Source: Candidatus Woesearchaeota archaeon
GTDB taxonomy: Archaea; Nanobdellota; Nanobdellia; SCGC-AAA011-G17; PNOQ01
Direction of reading: 5' to 3'
Length of the DNA stretch: 64,000 nucleotides
Assembly (NCBI GenBank): GCA_043812195.1
Contig: JBDRML010000029.1
Coordinates: 48,263-112,262 of the forward strand
Below are positions 13,063 through 61,990 of this stretch, one piece after another (position 1 is the stretch's first letter; each line of letters begins with the position of its first letter). Made by a program: the position numbers and the translations under genes. The notes beneath the pieces were generated by a model, which made no database searches, was not told the DNA's origin, and saw only the letters and a list, made by a program, of their open reading frames with translations.

Positions 13063-16000
13063 ATGGCAGAAAAATCAGTAGAACAAATAAAAAAAGTAAT
13101 GAATAACCCAAGCCATATAAGAAACATCGCTATCGCAGCCCATATCGATTTTTTTTGAGATAAATTCTCAAAAGACGAGTGCATGGGAAATGCATAGCAC
13201 CAGATTCAAGGCTCATTCTAAGAGATGGAACTATGTTAACTGCTAAAAAATTATTTAACTTAGCAGAGAAAAAAGGAACAAAATTTGAAGAAACGAAAGA
13301 CCATATAATTTATGATACTAACTCATTAAATTTAGAAGCATTTTCCCTAAACAAAACTAATGGAAAATTAGAAAAAAAACCAATACAACTAGCCTGGAAA
13401 TTAAAAGGTGGGGACTTAATAAATATTAAATTAAGAAACAATTTCAACATTTCCACAACACCAGAACACAAATATTTAGTCTTAGAAAATTTAGAGTTTA
13501 CAGAAAAAGAAGCTAAAGATATAAAATTAGGAGATAGAATAATCTGCCCAAGAAAGCTTGAAACTAATTCAAATATTAACATAAAACGCACAATTCTACT
13601 AAAATTAGCTGAAAAAAGATTTTACGTTAAAGTAAACAAAATCTTAGGAGAAAAAATAAAAAAATTCGTTCTGAAAGAAAAAGAAACAATAAAAAAAATA
13701 AACAAAGAAATAAAGTATAAATCATTTTATCATGGTTCATGGCAAAATAGATATTTATTAAAAGACTTAATAGAAATTTCAAGTTTAATAAATATAAACT
13801 TGGAGTATTTGTATAACAATATAGAAACAATAATTTATAGAAGCGGAGCTCAAAGAGGAAAAAGCTCGCTGCCAACAAAATTACCACAAAACTTTCAAAA
13901 CTTTTATTATCTAGCAGGATTGTTTGTAGGAGATGGACATCATAAAAAATTCATAGTCGGAAAAAATGAGTTAAAATCTAAATTTGTAGAAATTTGCAAT
14001 GAATTAGGAATAAATGTAACATATAGAAATTATGAATACAGAACAGAAGAAATAGTAACAAACGCTACCTTATTAGAAATATTAAACTCATTATTTGATT
14101 ATCCAAAAGTCAAAAAAAGCCATAATGTAAAAATATCAGAATTTCTTCTACTATCTCCAAAAAAATATTCTTCAAAATTCTTAAGAGGATACTTCGATAC
14201 TGATGGATGTGTAGAAAAAAGCAGAAGAGCAGTAACAATATCGTCTGCCAGTGATAAAATGATAGCAGATTTAAGTATGTTTTTATTAAGATTCGGTTGC
14301 ATACCAATCATAGAAAAAGACAACACAATAACAATTAGTGGACAATCCATGATAAATTTTATAGCAGAAATAGGATTTGAAATTAAAGCAAAAATAGCCA
14401 AAGCAAACTCCATAAAACAAACAATAATCGGAAGCATGGTTTCAGATGTTATACCAGTAACACATAGTAACGGAATGATTTCACTACAAAAAAACTTCAC
14501 CAATTCAGAAAAATTAATTAATTTTTGTGAAAAAAATGATATCAGCATAGAAAATATAAGTAAAATATTAAGTAAAGATATCTCATACATAGAAGTAAAA
14601 GCTATAGAAACAAAAAATGAAGAATTTGTATATGACTTCACAGTAAAAGACAACCATAACTTTGCTGCAGAAGGTATGATTATTCATAATACCACATTTT
14701 CAGACAATCTTTTAGCAGGTGCAGGCATGATTTCTAAAGAACTAGCAGGTAAACAATTAGCCTTAGATTTTCACGAAGATGAGGCAACAAGAGGTATTAC
14801 AATAGATTCAGCTAGCGTATCTATGCTTCACACAGTAAAGGGAGAAGATTACTTAATCAATTTAATAGACACACCAGGTCACGTAGATTTTGGTGGAGAT
14901 GTTACTAGGGCTATGAGAGCAGTTGACGGTGCAATTGTATTAGTAGATGCAGTTGAAGGAATAATGCCTCAAACAGAAACAGTTCTAAAACAAGCTCTAA
15001 GAGAAATGGTAAAACCAGTTCTTTTCATAAATAAAGTTGACCGTTTAATCAAAGAAGTTAAACTAACACCACAAGCAATGCAAGAAAGATTCATTAAAAT
15101 TATATCAGACGCTAATGGGTTCATTGAAACTTTTGCACCAGACGAATTCAAAAAGAAATGGCAATCAAACGTACAAGACGGAAGCGTAGCTTTTGGTTCA
15201 GCATTTCATAATTGGGCATTAAGTTTCCCATACATGCAAGAAAAAGGAATAAGCTTCAAAGATATTATAGATGCTTATGAAAAAGAAGATTGGAAAATTT
15301 TAGCAAAGAAAGCACCATTACATGAGGTTGTTTTGGGTATGATAATTAAACACCACGTAAATCCAATCACAGCACAAGCATACAGAATTCCAAAAATATG
15401 GAAAGGAGATTTAGATACAGAAATAGGAAAATCTTTATTAAATTGTGATCCAAAAGGACCTGTAGCATTTATAGTAACAAAAATAGTAATAGATAAACAT
15501 GCAGGAGAAGTATCTGCAGGAAGATTATTCTCAGGAACATTAAAACAAGGTGATGAAGTTTGGCTTAACATGGGTAAAAAGAAAGTTAGGTTACAACAGG
15601 TATCAATTTACAAAGGCGCACAAAGAACTGCTTTTAATGAAATTCCAGCAGGAAACATAGCAGGTTTAGTAGGATTAAAAGATACATTCGCAGGTGAAAC
15701 TATATCTTCAGAACCAATGGAACCTTTCGAAGCAATTAAACATATCTTTGAACCTGTAATCACAAAATCCATAGAAGCTAAAAAAGCATCAGACTTAGCA
15801 AAATTAATTGATGTTTTAAAACAAGTTGGAAAAGAAGATCCAAGTATCAAAATAGAAATCAATGAAGAAACTGGAGAAAATTTGATGCATGGTATGGGAG
15901 AATTACATTTAGAGATTATAGAAAACAGAATTAAATCTGAAAAAGGTTTAGATGTAACAACTTCAGAACCAATCGTTGTTTACAGAGAAACAGTTTCAAA

Positions 16001-16760
16001 AGTAAGTGCAGAAAAAGAAGGTAAAAGTCCAAATAAGCATAATAAATTCTATATGGTTGTAGAACCTCTAGAAGATAGTGTGTATGATGCAATAAAAGCA
16101 GGAGATTTACCAGAAGGTAGAATAAAGAAAAAAGATACAGAAACTATTCAAAAATTAGTGAAATTAGGATATGATGCCAAAGAAGCTAAAAATGTAAGAC
16201 AAATTTACAAAGGAAACATGCTAATTGACAACACAAGAGGTATTGTTCATATCGGAGAAGTTATAGAAATGATTATGGATGCTTATCAACAAGTTATAGA
16301 CGCAGGTCCTATTTGTAGAGAACCTTGTGGAAAACTAAAAGTAAGAATTATGGATATGAGACTACACGAAGATGCAATTCATAGAGGTCCAGCACAAGTT
16401 TATCCTGCTATCAGAGAATCAATAAAAGAAGCAATGGCAGATGCTAAATCTCACTTACTAGAACCTATTCAAATTGTACAAATAGAAAGTCCAGCAGAAT
16501 ATTTAGGAGAACTATCAGCATTAGTTCAAAATAAAAGAGGACAACTATTAAATGTAGATCAAGAAGGTGAACACATTACTGTAAAAGCAAAATTACCAGT
16601 AGCAGAAATGTTCGGCCTAGCATCAGATTTAAGATCAACAACATCCGGAAGAGGAGTATACTTCATAGTAGATCAAATGTATGAGAAATTACCAGAAACT
16701 CTACAAGAAAAAATCAGAAAACAAATAAGATCAAGAAAAGGTTTAAGTGAAAACGCTTAA
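13063..16760 (+). CDS. fusA: elongation factor aEF-2, join(13063..13149,13182..16760), with a predicted 32-nt BHB intron and an intein; mature protein ~721 aa
   Basis: Exon 1 MAEKSVEQIKKVMNNPSHIRNIAIAAHID joins HGK-[intein]-TTFSD. Also RGITI, DTPGHVDFG, NKVD and the diphthamide loop HEDAIHRGPAQ. Confidence 0.93.
13150..13181 (+). other. predicted BHB mRNA intron (32 nt) in the EF-2 G1 motif
   Basis: Outer helix CCCAT/ATGGG, central helix ATCG/CGAG (3 of 4 pairs), bulges AT|T and TG|C, inner 10-bp stem TTTTTTGAGA/TCTCAAAAGA. Removal restores D|H in frame; the unspliced frame hits TGA. Confidence 0.82.
13191..14690 (+). mobile_element. intein (500 aa) with LAGLIDADG homing endonuclease in the EF-2 P-loop (HGK/T)
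   Basis: Starts CIAPDS, block B TTPEHK, LAGLFVGDG and FLRGYFDTDG, ends VYDFTV..NHNF...IIHN followed by Thr. Confidence 0.95.
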
Positions 16761-27158: not shown

Positions 27159-27917
27159 TTGCCATACACCACAAAATCATTTATAAAGTTAAAAATCAAT
27201 GCATCAAACATGAATCTATCAGAAAGAGGAAAAAGGAATGTAAGAATAAGATGGAATAGAATACATCAAAAAGAGATTGATTATATAAGGAAAAATTTAG
27301 ATAAAACTTTTAATTTTAAATCTAGGTTATGTGGTTACTTAGCAGGAGATGGCAATATTCTTACTGCTAATAGCAAAACATGTACTCATTATACAATTCG
27401 TTTTTTCCCAGATCATTATTCACTAATTAAACCATTTAAAGAAGCGTTTATCAAAACATATAATAAAAATCCAAAAGTGAAAAAATTAAAAAACTATTAT
27501 TTTATAACTATTGATTCCAAACCAATAGTATATGATCTCTTGTCACTAGTTGAATTTGGTACTTCAAATTGGAGTATTCCAAATAAAATTTTAACCAATG
27601 ATAAAAATAAAATAGAATGGTTAAGAGCATTTTTTGATGCTGAAGCACATATTCATGAAAAATATATTAGAATTCAATCAGTTAATGGAAAAGGATTAAA
27701 ACAAGTAAAAGAATTATTAAACCAATTTTCTATTAATTCCAAAATTTATGAATACGTTCCAAAAAATAAAAAATGGAATAAGGTGTACATACTAAATATT
27801 TTAAGGAAAAAAGATAAAATAAATTATTTAAAATTAATAGGATTTAATCACACCATAAAGCTTAAAAAGTTAAATAAAAATCTTGATTTTGCCTTAAATA
27901 AAGCCGCGGTCGCGTAA
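27159..27917 (+). CDS. free-standing LAGLIDADG homing endonuclease (likely ATG start 27210), 3' end overlaps tRNA-Ser(GGA)
   Basis: LCGYLAGDG and WLRAFFDAEA; the TAA stop at 27915-27917 lies in the tRNA D-loop. Confidence 0.85.
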   Translation: MPYTTKSFIKLKINASNMNLSERGKRNVRIRWNRIHQKEIDYIRKNLDKTFNFKSRLCGYLAGDGNILTANSKTCTHYTIRFFPDHYSLIKPFKEAFIKTYNKNPKVKKLKNYYFITIDSKPIVYDLLSLVEFGTSNWSIPNKILTNDKNKIEWLRAFFDAEAHIHEKYIRIQSVNGKGLKQVKELLNQFSINSKIYEYVPKNKKWNKVYILNILRKKDKINYLKLIGFNHTIKLKKLNKNLDFALNKAAVA

Positions 27918-28020
27918 TCTGGTATCGCACAGATCCTTAAAAGAAATAAAATTTTTATGGAGTGTAAGCCTGGAAAGCCTGACCCTTTTGGGTGTCTGGG
28001 TTCAAATCCCAGTCGCGGCG
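27903..28020 (+). tRNA. tRNA-Ser(GGA) with a 35-nt BHB intron at 29/30 (27933-27967)
   Basis: Acceptor GCCGCGG/TCGCGGC plus G73. After splicing the anticodon arm is CAGGC-CTGGAAA-GCCTG. Long variable arm, T arm CTGGG-TTCAAAT-CCCAG. BHB helix GCAC/GTGT with bulges AG|A and AA|G. Confidence 0.9.
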
Positions 28021-40824: not shown

Positions 40825-41961
40825 TTAAATATACTTAGATTCCTTATAAATTTTTAAATGCCTGTTCATCTCTACATCAGAAGTTTTTTCTGGAAACATA
40901 ATCTCAAATTTTTTTACTATTTCTTTTCTAAGTTTATATGTATTAGCATGTTTCATATAAGCAAAAGAACCTTGTAAATTATCATAAATTTGGTTATAAT
41001 CTATTCTATTACTTAAATGTAACAAATAAAGTTTATTCAGTTTATTATAGATATTTTTTCTATTAAACTTCTTTAATAATTTGTAATAATAAAAAACTCT
41101 AAAACCAACAAAATTGATTGGGTCATTTAAGGAAATTATTTTAGATTTGTCAGGATGTAGCTCTATTTTCAATTCTTTTTTAAGAAAATTATCAATGTCT
41201 TCTTTCCATCTTATTAATTGTTGTTTAGAAGAATGCAATATTACAAAATCATCAACATAACGAATATAGTATTTTGCTTTTAATTTATGCTTAACAAACT
41301 TGTCTAATTCGTTTAAATAAATATTTGCAAAAAATTGAGAAGTTAGATTACCCAATGGCATACCTTTGTTTTTATTAATCCGGTTCGCTTTCCCTTTATA
41401 ATTGTCCAAAATCTTTTTGATAAGCCATATGGTTTTAGAACATTTAATTTTCTTCTTAATTATCTTCAATAAAATTTCTTGATCTATATCTTCAAAATAA
41501 TGCTTTATATCTGCTTTTAAACAATAGCCTTTAACTTGGTTATTATTGTACCATCCATTAATTTTTCCATTCCTTGATACTTTTCTTTTAAACTGATCAA
41601 ATCTTTCTAATGCTGCTATTGTTCCTTTGCCCTTTCTGTTGGCATAAGAATCAGAAATAAAAGTTCTATCAAAAATAGGTTCTATCACATTACATAAAGC
41701 ATGATGAATTATTCTATCTCTAAAATCTGACTTGCTTATTTTTCTTGTTTTAGGATCTCTTATTATAAAATTTTTCAATGGTTTTGGTTTGTAAGAATGC
41801 AGCAATAATTCAGTTCTTAATTCCAAAATATTTTCTTCTAAGTTTTTTTCAAATTTCTTTACATCACTTTTATTTGATTTGCCTTTTTTTGATTTTCTAA
41901 AAGCTAAATATAAATTCTCTTCTGAATTAATCTTTGAATACTGATCACTATATGATTTCAT
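40825..41961 (-). CDS. DGR reverse transcriptase (ATG 41961; the ORF-track extension to 42045 is the TR)
   Basis: PKTRKI...FRDRIIHHAL, SYANRKGKG, LKADIKHYF, GMPLGNLTSQFFANIYL, YIRYVDDF, FVGF. Confidence 0.93.
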   Translation of the reverse strand: MKSYSDQYSKINSEENLYLAFRKSKKGKSNKSDVKKFEKNLEENILELRTELLLHSYKPKPLKNFIIRDPKTRKISKSDFRDRIIHHALCNVIEPIFDRTFISDSYANRKGKGTIAALERFDQFKRKVSRNGKINGWYNNNQVKGYCLKADIKHYFEDIDQEILLKIIKKKIKCSKTIWLIKKILDNYKGKANRINKNKGMPLGNLTSQFFANIYLNELDKFVKHKLKAKYYIRYVDDFVILHSSKQQLIRWKEDIDNFLKKELKIELHPDKSKIISLNDPINFVGFRVFYYYKLLKKFNRKNIYNKLNKLYLLHLSNRIDYNQIYDNLQGSFAYMKHANTYKLRKEIVKKFEIMFPEKTSDVEMNRHLKIYKESKYI

Positions 41962-41987
41962 GAATATACCTGGTAAAGGGTAATAAG

Positions 41988-42075
41988 CTATTCGACCATT
42001 CAAGTTAGAGTTGTCTAAGTTGTTCCAGTTGGAGTTAAGATTCAAGTTCCTGTTAAGGTTCAGCCTGGAAAGGCC
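41988..42075 (-). repeat. DGR template repeat (TR), 88 nt, 11 AAY codons, 29 adenines
   Basis: GGCCTTTCCAGGCTGAACCTTAACAGGAAC...AATGGTCGAATAG aligns without gaps to two VRs, with all mismatches at TR adenines. Confidence 0.95.
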
Positions 42076-42193
42076 ACCACTTCATTATTCTCATGAGATA
42101 CTAAATGTTGCAGTTGAATTTTATGTATCAACAGACTTGTAGCCTAGCCCTTAAGACCAGGAATTAGAATAGACAAGTATTAATTTTTAAAGT

Positions 42194-50492: not shown

Positions 50493-51233
50493 ATGAGATA
50501 TAAACTAGATAAGAGAAATGGTTTAATATTACCAAAAAATAAATCAACACTCTTAGCCGAAATAGTTGGAGCCATATTTGGAGATGGATATATGTCAGAC
50601 AGAAAAAAAGATGGATTCTCTTTAAAACTGTTTGGAAACTTAAAAAAGGATTGTAGATACATATTATTCTTAAAAAATAGTATAAAAAATATCTTTAATT
50701 TAAAAAATATCAAAATATCGAGAAATCAACAAAATAATTGTATTAAACTTTGTGTTTATTCAAGAACATTATGTGAATTTCTACATGAAGAATTACAAGT
50801 GCCATATTCACCAAAATTAAATCTCAAAATTCCAAGTTGGATAATAAATAACAAAGAATATTTTATTTATTTCATCAGAGGTTTATTTGATACTGATGGT
50901 TGTGTAACAATTCAAAAAGATAAGAAGTACAGATATCATGTGATAAAAATTTCTTGCAAAAAAAGTTTAGCTCTTTCATTAAAGGAAAATTTATTAAAAA
51001 TAAACATAAAATCATTTATATGTAAAAAGGGGTATAGAGATAATTACGATTTAATAGTAAAAAGAAAGAAAGAGGTAATCAAATGGGTAAAAATCATAGG
51101 TTCGAACAATTATAGAAACATAGAAAAATTAAAAGAAATAAAAGACAAGATTTATATAGAGAAAATAGATACTATTCCTTATAAAGCTGAGACCGGGACC
51201 ATAGCTCAATCTGGTAGAGTGACCGATTCTTGA
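50493..51233 (+). CDS. free-standing LAGLIDADG homing endonuclease, 3' end overlaps tRNA-Trp
   Basis: LAEIVGAIFGDG and FIRGLFDTDG; the TGA stop at 51231-51233 lies within tRNA intron 1. Confidence 0.88.
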   Translation: MRYKLDKRNGLILPKNKSTLLAEIVGAIFGDGYMSDRKKDGFSLKLFGNLKKDCRYILFLKNSIKNIFNLKNIKISRNQQNNCIKLCVYSRTLCEFLHEELQVPYSPKLNLKIPSWIINNKEYFIYFIRGLFDTDGCVTIQKDKKYRYHVIKISCKKSLALSLKENLLKINIKSFICKKGYRDNYDLIVKRKKEVIKWVKIIGSNNYRNIEKLKEIKDKIYIEKIDTIPYKAETGTIAQSGRVTDS

Positions 51234-51318
51234 AAAAGAAGTCAATGCTCCAGACCGGTTGATACTTAACAGTTATCTGTAAGTAGCCGAAATGGGGGTT
51301 CAAATCCCTCTGGTCTCA
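51195..51318 (+). tRNA. tRNA-Trp(CCA) with two BHB introns: 30/31 (51226-51246, 21 nt) and 45/46 (51262-51291, 30 nt)
   Basis: Acceptor GGGACCA/TGGTCTC. Spliced anticodon arm ACCGG-CTCCAGA-CCGGT, T arm GGGGG-TTCAAAT-CCCTC. BHB helices TGAC/GTCA and CGGT/GCCG with 3-nt bulges. Confidence 0.87.
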
Positions 51319-61237: not shown

Positions 61238-61341
61238 CGCCGAGACTGGGATTTGAACCCAGGAGTCCCGAAGGACCTAGATTAGCAATCTAGTGCACTA
61301 ACCAGGCTATGCGTTCGAGGATTTATTCTATCTATCTCGGC
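61238..61341 (-). tRNA. tRNA-Ser(GCT) with a 20-nt BHB intron at 8/9 (61314-61333)
   Basis: Acceptor GCCGAGA/TCTCGGC plus G73, anticodon arm CTAGA-TTGCTAA-TCTAG, variable arm GTCC-TTCG-GGAC, T arm CTGGG-TTCAAAT-CCCAG. BHB helix CGAG/CTCG with bulges AT|A and AA|C. Confidence 0.88.
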
Positions 61342-61990
61342 AAAAAGCCTTCTCGGTAACACTCTGTATTATGCTCTTTTTCTTAGAATGAGATGATTGT
61401 ATTAAGTTTATAAATCTTTCAGTTCCTTTTCTTTTCAACAAAATTTCATAAGCATCCTTTTTACCAATTCTTTTATATGGCCCATTTAAAGAACATTCCA
61501 TCTTCAAATCCTCCAAAATTTTCTTTAATTGTTTCAAACCATTTAAATTTATAGAACCAAATCTAACTCTAGTATATTTGCCTTGATTTAAATCAATAGA
61601 TCCATCTCCATCAAAATAACCTTGAATAAACCCAAGCTTTACAGCATCATTTCCTTCCATAACAAATTTAGGAACATACCATTTATTATTTCCCAATACA
61701 ACATATCTAAGAATATCATCTATAACATATTTTTTAACTATACACACTCTATAAGTTCTATTATTACTAAATATTATATTAGGTTTATAACCATAAACAA
61801 AATTCAATAATTCTTGAAATTTTTGTAAAAGAAGTATATTTGTATTGGCAAATTCCATTATTCTTTTATTTTGTACTCGATTATAGTGTTTATTCCTTCT
61901 TTTATCAAATTCTATATATCTACTAACATATTCTCTATAATTTCCATCAGAACACAATAACCCAATTATGTTAGCTTTTTTTGACAACAT
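61328..61990 (-). CDS. free-standing LAGLIDADG homing endonuclease, 3' end overlaps tRNA-Ser(GCT)
   Basis: IIGLLCSDG and FIQGYFDGDG; the TAG stop at 61330-61328 lies within the tRNA intron. Confidence 0.88.
   Translation of the reverse strand: MLSKKANIIGLLCSDGNYREYVSRYIEFDKRRNKHYNRVQNKRIMEFANTNILLLQKFQELLNFVYGYKPNIIFSNNRTYRVCIVKKYVIDDILRYVVLGNNKWYVPKFVMEGNDAVKLGFIQGYFDGDGSIDLNQGKYTRVRFGSINLNGLKQLKKILEDLKMECSLNGPYKRIGKKDAYEILLKRKGTERFINLIQSSHSKKKSIIQSVTEKAFCRDR

Follow-up and report, generated by a model that had tools for sequence, protein, structure and literature searches.

How a gene interrupted twice within one nucleotide-binding motif can still yield its protein, and why two inserts of different kinds should meet there, are the questions raised by the elongation factor 2 (EF-2) gene in a 64,000-nucleotide (nt) stretch of archaeal DNA, here called the window (Candidatus Woesearchaeota archaeon, contig JBDRML010000029.1, positions 48,263 to 112,262 of the forward strand). 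The host assembly comprises 0.94 Mb in 45 contigs, and in the window the EF-2 gene is followed by that of EF-1alpha, both on the + strand. An earlier note, made from the sequence alone, had placed an intron at D|H and an intein at K|T of the motif AHIDHGKTT, 9 nt apart, and these coordinates proved to be exact (Table 1). The frame is broken by a 32-nt insert directly behind the AHID codons, resumes at HGK and is interrupted again after these three codons by an intein of 500 amino acids (aa). Relatives that lack both inserts read without interruption, as ...AHIDHGKTTFSDNLL, from the same N-terminus into HGKTT, and both inserts must therefore be removed for EF-2 protein to be made. Around the inserts the complete EF-2 domain set was found by Pfam, and the C-extein is 60-80% identical to the EF-2 of relatives. 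We consider it likely that this is a working EF-2 gene that depends on two removals, and that its intron comes from a population of bulge-helix-bulge (BHB) introns of fast turnover at five positions upstream of the intein point.

The RNA of positions 13120-13215 is predicted to fold with -25.4 kcal/mol (z = -3.0) and to take the form of a BHB motif, with two 3-nt bulges on opposite strands around a central helix of four positions and with helices on either side. The archaeal splicing endonuclease canonically cuts after the second nucleotide of the bulge, and cuts at this nucleotide on both sides give the only junctions that yield AHID|HGK in frame and rebuild AHIDHGKTT. The same canonical geometry, applied by script, selected the junction restoring H[IV]DHGK in nearly all of 34 related introns, and all four central pairs are formed in the relatives L009, L022 and L024. 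Intron positions are given here as offsets relative to the first nucleotide of the IRN codon, which places the intein at offset 42. Among 20 distinct sequences with an intron at offset 33, 83% of the predicted pairs form, as against 34-41% in controls in which the partner strand was slid by 1-2 nt; the corresponding values are 80% versus 39-55% at offset 29 (n = 7) and 79% versus 25-45% at offset 40/41 (n = 8). The pairs of the inner helix are represented by 2-5 pair types with 50-95% pairing, the first five of them by 3-5 types with 75-95%, and one pair between exon and intron is C-G in 12 sequences and T-A in 7, tracking the wobble base of the Ile codon. This covariation, including the compensation between exon and intron, strongly indicates selection on the fold.

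As for the splicing enzymes, one protein with an EndA catalytic domain (PF01974 at C3:1706-1966, 93.8 bits) and an RtcB ligase (C8:182-1417, 480.7 bits) are encoded in the genome. EndA would cut the pre-mRNA in both 3-nt bulges and RtcB would join the exons, whereby 32 nt are lost and the frame AHID|HGK is restored; the translated protein would then splice itself free of the intein, which separates Lys from Thr in the same P-loop. The anatomy of the gene, the BHB fold and the junction required by the protein all agree with the earlier suggestion that RNA splicing followed by protein splicing is needed here. Contigs from three independent public metagenome DNA runs, belonging to three studies, extend across both the insert and the junction with the intein; they differ by 0-6 substitutions and by no indel, and the presence of the insert in three independent assemblies rules out an assembly error. 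A likely TATA box lies so close to the start codon that the EF-2 mRNA would be leaderless or nearly so. The contigs of two runs (X2 and X3) match the window from position 13064 on and diverge directly upstream of the EF-2 start codon, which points to differences between strains in the promoter region.

The intein begins with Cys1 (13191-93) and ends with His-Asn (14685-90), followed by Thr as the +1 residue (14691-93). Pfam analysis revealed an Intein_splicing match (5.8e-28) over residues 52-503 with a LAGLIDADG_3 domain (9.8e-15) inside it, and the closest solved structure is that of PI-PkoII (E = 8.6e-11); from its sequence the homing endonuclease is predicted to be active. Allelic inteins occur in 18 of the other 143 related loci described below, and the 17 intact ones form a tree in which host families are mixed, an indirect sign of homing. 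A search of genome contigs with the intein gave two distant matches only, both in bacterial genome bins and with 29-30% identity. Inteins are known in the P-loops (GxxxxGK|T/S) of archaeal ATPases and GTPases, and the EF-2 intein resembles these in its place after the Walker A Lys, its Cys1, its His-Asn and following nucleophile, its LAGLIDADG domain and its patchy distribution among alleles; an intein in the P-loop of EF-2 was not found to be named in any open-access text. Given what is generally known of the sites of LAGLIDADG enzymes, an intron at 9 nt would plausibly lie inside the recognition site of this endonuclease, as the earlier note had supposed. Two of the allelic inteins are damaged, that of L106 (G093) by an in-frame stop and that of L074 (G067) by a frame change, and these may be decaying or may reflect sequencing errors.

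The order was surveyed with the C-extein as query, and 221 of 240 genomes (0.4-1.8 Mb in this order) gave a match. The 144 loci considered here are the listed matches starting at query residue 1 together with three from an earlier search, and all were classified by script. Neither insert is present in 94 loci, an intron only in 29, an intein only in 12 and both in 7; of the remaining two, one, at a contig end, cannot be scored and the other carries a plain 10-nt deletion. Introns are thus present in 36 of the 143 scorable loci and the intein in 19. Two of the 29 intron-only loci are one identical sequence in two genome bins, and two of the 12 intein-only loci are those with the damaged inteins. 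The introns are 30-39 nt long, and all 37 of them occupy one of five positions located 1-15 nt upstream of where the intein is inserted, namely offset 27 (one intron), 29 (7), 33 (21), 40 (7, one of them ambiguous) and 41 (one). Two of the 37 share one allele: L047 (G168) contains, at 2326-2398, two 31-nt BHB introns at offsets 29 and 40 around an 11-nt micro-exon (z = -5.0). Sequence types of introns cross families, a core of 10-12 nt recurs at offsets 27, 29 and 33, and the intron of the window resembles those of L075, L129 and L140. Transfer of exon 1 along with the intron was rejected, as the N-terminal peptides of exon 1 follow the host family, and any transferred tract must accordingly be very short. 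Long endonuclease-bearing introns were found at the EF-2 site in none of the 144 loci. The 10-nt deletion in L026 (G037), a short way upstream of the P-loop, takes out the codons in front of IDHGK and changes the frame, whereas the sister locus L042 is intact; it could be an assembly error, the mark of a dead gene or something else. The EF-2 loci L121 (G050, family f13) and L122 (G204, family f2) are identical, introns included, and probably represent one contig binned twice or mixed bins.

The earlier note had asked for a tabulation of intron and intein across related alleles and had named their independent distribution as the outcome that would speak against its view. Such independence was largely what we found. 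Among 141 scorable alleles, both inserts occur in 7, the intron alone in 28, the intein alone in 12 and neither in 94 (Fisher odds ratio 1.96, p = 0.25), and of the phylogenetically independent pairs on a FastTree tree of the C-exteins 5.3 went the same way and 2.3 the opposite way (p ~0.45). On the same tree the 35 intron alleles among the 141 imply no fewer than 30 changes in intron presence, the 19 intein alleles no fewer than 19 in intein presence, and sister pairs only 1-5% divergent in protein differ in state. The intron-bearing alleles are scattered on the intein tree, and closely related inteins occur in alleles with and without an intron. Within the order intron and intein are thus statistically independent and both turn over very fast; the link that remains between them runs through the shared site only. 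Three subsets of alleles are of particular note in this respect: in clade f15, intron and mini-intein occur together in three alleles, neither occurs in two and none has a single insert; in another clade all of 10 alleles are occupied, either by an intron (offset 29, 33, 40 or 41) or by the intein; and none of the 8 introns that interrupt the Lys codon, at a distance of 1-2 nt from the intein point, is accompanied by the intein.

The restriction of the introns to this site was evident in the remainder of EF-2. No frame breaks or insertions of at least 8 aa were detected in the 144 C-exteins (about 2 kb of the gene), which also excluded hidden in-frame introns there. For other orders, 301 genomes of the class were searched and 100 of the 150 listed rows belonged to such orders; with frame length as the only criterion, none of these 100 showed an intein-size or shortened EF-2 frame (frames of 721-794 aa), a test that an intron like that at offset 27, which leaves a frame of 718 aa, could escape. 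EF-1alpha, with a P-loop similar to that of EF-2 and equally near the 5' end, was examined in the same 240 genomes: in 148 of the 150 rows listed the frame stays open for 424 aa or more and so takes in the P-loop, and none of the 150 has an intein-size frame. The two exceptions are G021, at a contig end, and G142 with an unexplained N-terminus; the latter (L147) lacks the usual N-terminus, with a stop codon 13 codons ahead of where the query begins and without an in-frame Met. For RadA, searched in 151 genomes of the order, intein-size frames were present in 23 of 134 listed rows, and among these 134 no short frame indicative of an intron was seen away from a contig end. Three RadA contigs break at or just upstream of the P-loop intein point (G197:C42 at its end, G036:C16 at its start and G175:C8 at its end), as would be expected from co-assembly of strains with and without the intein. 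Genome-wide scanning for BHB motifs joining two open frames revealed no excess over slid-partner controls (695 versus 661, then 2511 versus 2487), and at the score of the EF-2 intron it gave 19 versus 25 controls, the script being too noisy. Copies of the intron core elsewhere in the genome were looked for as well, and the few 14-17-nt matches, lying inside uninterrupted open reading frames (ORFs), were dismissed as chance.

The established BHB intron in an archaeal mRNA is that of cbf5, encoding a pseudouridine synthase, in Crenarchaeota (PMC2738675), and it is the only such case among the references of a 2025 paper on the endonuclease. The EF-2 introns are like that of cbf5 in being short BHB introns in an archaeal protein gene with gains and losses among relatives, the cbf5 intron being removed by the tRNA-splicing endonuclease. 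They differ in their host gene, in their occurrence in an order with genomes of 0.4-1.8 Mb and in adjoining an intein site, and furthermore in their five positions within 15 nt, the two-intron allele with its 11-nt micro-exon and the at least 30 changes in 141 alleles. Spliceosomal introns at or near intein sites have been described in Anaeramoeba, where a block of homing through disruption of the endonuclease site is proposed and Prp8 of Eupenicillium and Bathycoccus is cited as providing further cases (PMC10710043). There too the introns lie a few nt from the intein point, in the P-loop and other conserved motifs, but they are eukaryotic spliceosomal introns, reported mostly from intein-free sites, whereas those of EF-2 are archaeal BHB introns. 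Intron and intein co-occur in EF-2 no more rarely than by chance, and the generalization to RadA failed. In the open-access literature nothing was found on BHB introns of EF-2 or on archaeal BHB introns next to inteins, and PMC3082918 proved to be unrelated. The psbA intron of cyanophages is said to home collaboratively, an intron without endonuclease making use of a separately encoded homing endonuclease. Its resemblance to the short, endonuclease-less EF-2 intron beside a homing endonuclease gene, and to three tRNA hits of the window, is limited by the fact that the EF-2 intein already interrupts its own target, so that the intron is not needed for self-immunity.

In the allele of the window, intron and intein most likely share a hot spot as closely linked neighbours and do not form an obligate pair, the two inserts being inherited or lost together as they are only 9 nt apart. 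Several points weigh against a working gene with a spliced intron of this kind. No RNA run was found to contain the locus, and the one RNA run compared placed nothing on it; the intron of the window has an A.G mismatch in its central helix; only one EndA-type gene was found, and if EndA is a strict homotetramer, relaxed motifs such as that of L103, with two of four central pairs, may be poor substrates. Moreover, 86 further, weaker EF-2 matches of the order lie outside the 144-locus sample, and the cause of the hot spot falls outside what this reading explains. It is very improbable that the 32 nt are not an intron at all but an assembly error, a frameshift in a dead gene or a case of ribosomal bypass. 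The missing RNA and the plain deletion of L026 at the same place would be in keeping with this, yet the three assemblies are concordant, the gene is single-copy, essential and otherwise intact, and the inserts of all 36 loci fit BHB geometry with covariation. As to the cause of the clustering, the micro-introns could be resistance alleles that break up the site of the homing endonuclease and guard an intein-free EF-2 with its protein unchanged, an idea that has been published for eukaryotes (PMC10710043) and that we regard as possible, if on balance doubtful. A shielding role of this kind fits the clustering of 37 out of 37 introns within 15 nt upstream of the intein point with none elsewhere in the gene, the clade in which four intron positions or the intein occupy every allele, and the coincidence of introns and intein at the level of the order, the listed EF-2 of other orders having neither intein-size nor shortened frames. 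The Lys-codon introns without a single intein and the EF-1alpha P-loop, intein-free and essentially uninterrupted among the listed rows, point in the same direction. As a simple or general rule, however, shielding is weakened by the lack of mutual exclusion, since 7 of the 35 intron alleles also hold the intein and closely related inteins are found in alleles with and without an intron, and by RadA, which is frequently of intein size in the listed rows and nevertheless has no intron candidates away from contig ends. The contiguous N-exteins of the genome's other intein genes also count against it, and the pure resistance allele of the earlier note is hence not borne out.

Its other proposal, that the intron is a hitchhiker co-converted during homing, is contradicted in its pure form. 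In this reading, which is in our judgement unlikely, the intron would spread and be lost by co-conversion with the intein, in homing or recombination, owing to the distance of only 9 nt, and intron-only alleles would be leftovers after intein loss. It would account for clade f15, for the weak and non-significant trend towards a positive association, for alike introns in distant families (that of the window and those of L075, L129 and L140), for the mixing of families on the intein tree and for the restriction of both kinds of insert to one order in the listed rows. Against it stand the 28 intron-only and 12 intein-only alleles, the independence of intron status from intein lineage, the very short tract to which the exon-1 peptides confine any transfer and the five insertion positions, which require several origins that hitchhiking does not supply; linkage can explain why both were lost together in one clade, but not why so many alleles have a single insert. 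A hot spot intrinsic to the sequence and unrelated to the intein seems to us a quite unlikely cause. The stretch encoding AHIDHGK is complementary to itself (CCCAU can pair with AUGGG, and ATCGAT is a palindrome) and lies less than 100 nt from the 5' end of the mRNA, and it might favour the arising or insertion of BHB folds, for example by reversed splicing followed by reverse transcription and recombination. The outer helix at the commonest position is indeed composed wholly of exon sequence and is nearly invariant, RadA shows that an intein alone is not sufficient, and the window holds a reverse transcriptase gene adjoining an RT-16 RNA. Only 1-2 outer pairs are formed at positions 29 and 40/41, however, the closely related EF-2 of the other orders listed shows no shortened frames, and insertion by such a mechanism is undemonstrated; self-complementarity may play a part at offset 33, but at none of the other four. 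Lastly, and tentatively, the P-loop stretch of EF-2 might be the site of an arms race in which the tRNA-splicing machinery of these small-genome archaea was repeatedly recruited to put removable micro-introns into the target of a circulating intein endonuclease, at five positions, in dozens of gain and loss events and once with two introns around an 11-nt exon.

If that were true, it would be the first intron-based immunity to intein homing in a prokaryote, and BHB introns could spread between species into a protein-coding gene. Apart from the arms race, the only archaeal protein-coding BHB intron named in the literature searched is that of cbf5, and here an essential translation factor carries BHB introns, with clear covariation, in roughly one in four of the sampled species of a single order. 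These alleles form a natural series for intron gain and loss, for the minimum exon tolerated by the splicing endonuclease (11 nt) and for mRNA splicing with coupled translation, and the adjacency of the intein makes the idea that introns shield genes, raised so far for eukaryotes only, directly testable in a prokaryote. In practical terms, EF-2 is often used as a phylogenetic marker, and gene callers will split or shorten the genes concerned.

Table 1. Features of the EF-2 locus and other elements of the window (positions counted from the first nucleotide of the 64,000-nt window).
Feature	Position	Strand	Basis or remark
Likely archaeal TATA box, TTTATAAA	13031..13038	+	24 nt upstream of EF-2 start codon; read from sequence
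EF-2 exon 1, 29 codons, MAEKSVEQIKKVMNNPSHIRNIAIAAHID, ending ...IRNIAIAAHID	13063..13149	+	translation
BHB outer (exon-exon) helix, CCCAU with AUGGG, 5 bp	13139-13143 with 13183-13187	+	fold, covariation
BHB central helix of four positions, AUCG with CGAG	13144-13147 with 13176-13179	+	3 pairs and mismatch A13144.G13179
BHB 5' bulge	13148-13150	+	predicted cut after 13149
BHB 3' bulge	13180-13182	+	C13182 is third nucleotide; predicted cut after 13181
Inner hairpin, 10 bp	13151-13160 with 13166-13175	+	fold
BHB micro-intron, 32 nt	13150..13181	+	fold, geometry script, covariation in 20 relatives, three DNA assemblies
His-Gly-Lys codons (CAT GGG AAA) between intron and intein	13182..13190	+	sequence, translation, fold
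Intein, 500 aa, with LAGLIDADG homing endonuclease domain	13191..14690	+	Pfam, closest structure, allelic inteins
LAGLIDADG motif 1, LAGLFVGDG	13911-13937	+	acidic residue kept
LAGLIDADG motif 2, LRGYFDTDG	14181-14207	+	acidic residue kept
EF-2 C-extein, 689 aa from TTFSDNLL	14691-16757 (with stop, 14691..16760)	+	translation, Pfam
LAGLIDADG ORF and tRNA	27159-27917 and 27903-28020	+	ORF overlaps 5' end of tRNA
LAGLIDADG ORF and tRNA	50493-51233 and 51195-51318	+	ORF overlaps 5' end of tRNA
LAGLIDADG ORF and tRNA hit	61328-61990 and 61246-61312	-	16 nt apart; partial model match
Reverse transcriptase gene	40828-42045	-	Pfam, RVT_1 1.4e-24
RT-16 RNA match	42055-42161	-	51.3 bits; adjoins reverse transcriptase gene

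Elsewhere in the window, free-standing LAGLIDADG genes lie directly upstream of three tRNA hits and on the same strand. The first two of these tRNAs are complete and have long inserts in the anticodon region. The earlier remark on the BHB introns of the window, all of which were said to adjoin a LAGLIDADG gene, holds for all three tRNA hits as regards the neighbouring gene, but the third hit matches the model only in part. Genome-wide, 7 of 26 tRNA hits have a LAGLIDADG neighbour, and this pairing looks like a partnership of endonuclease and intron. The genome (G000) is also rich in inteins, which were seen on contigs C1, C3, C4, C21, C31, C41 and C2; in 7 of the other intein genes the N-exteins are contiguous, and P-loop inteins are present in three genes, one RadA-like with two inteins, one RFC-like with several and one on C1.

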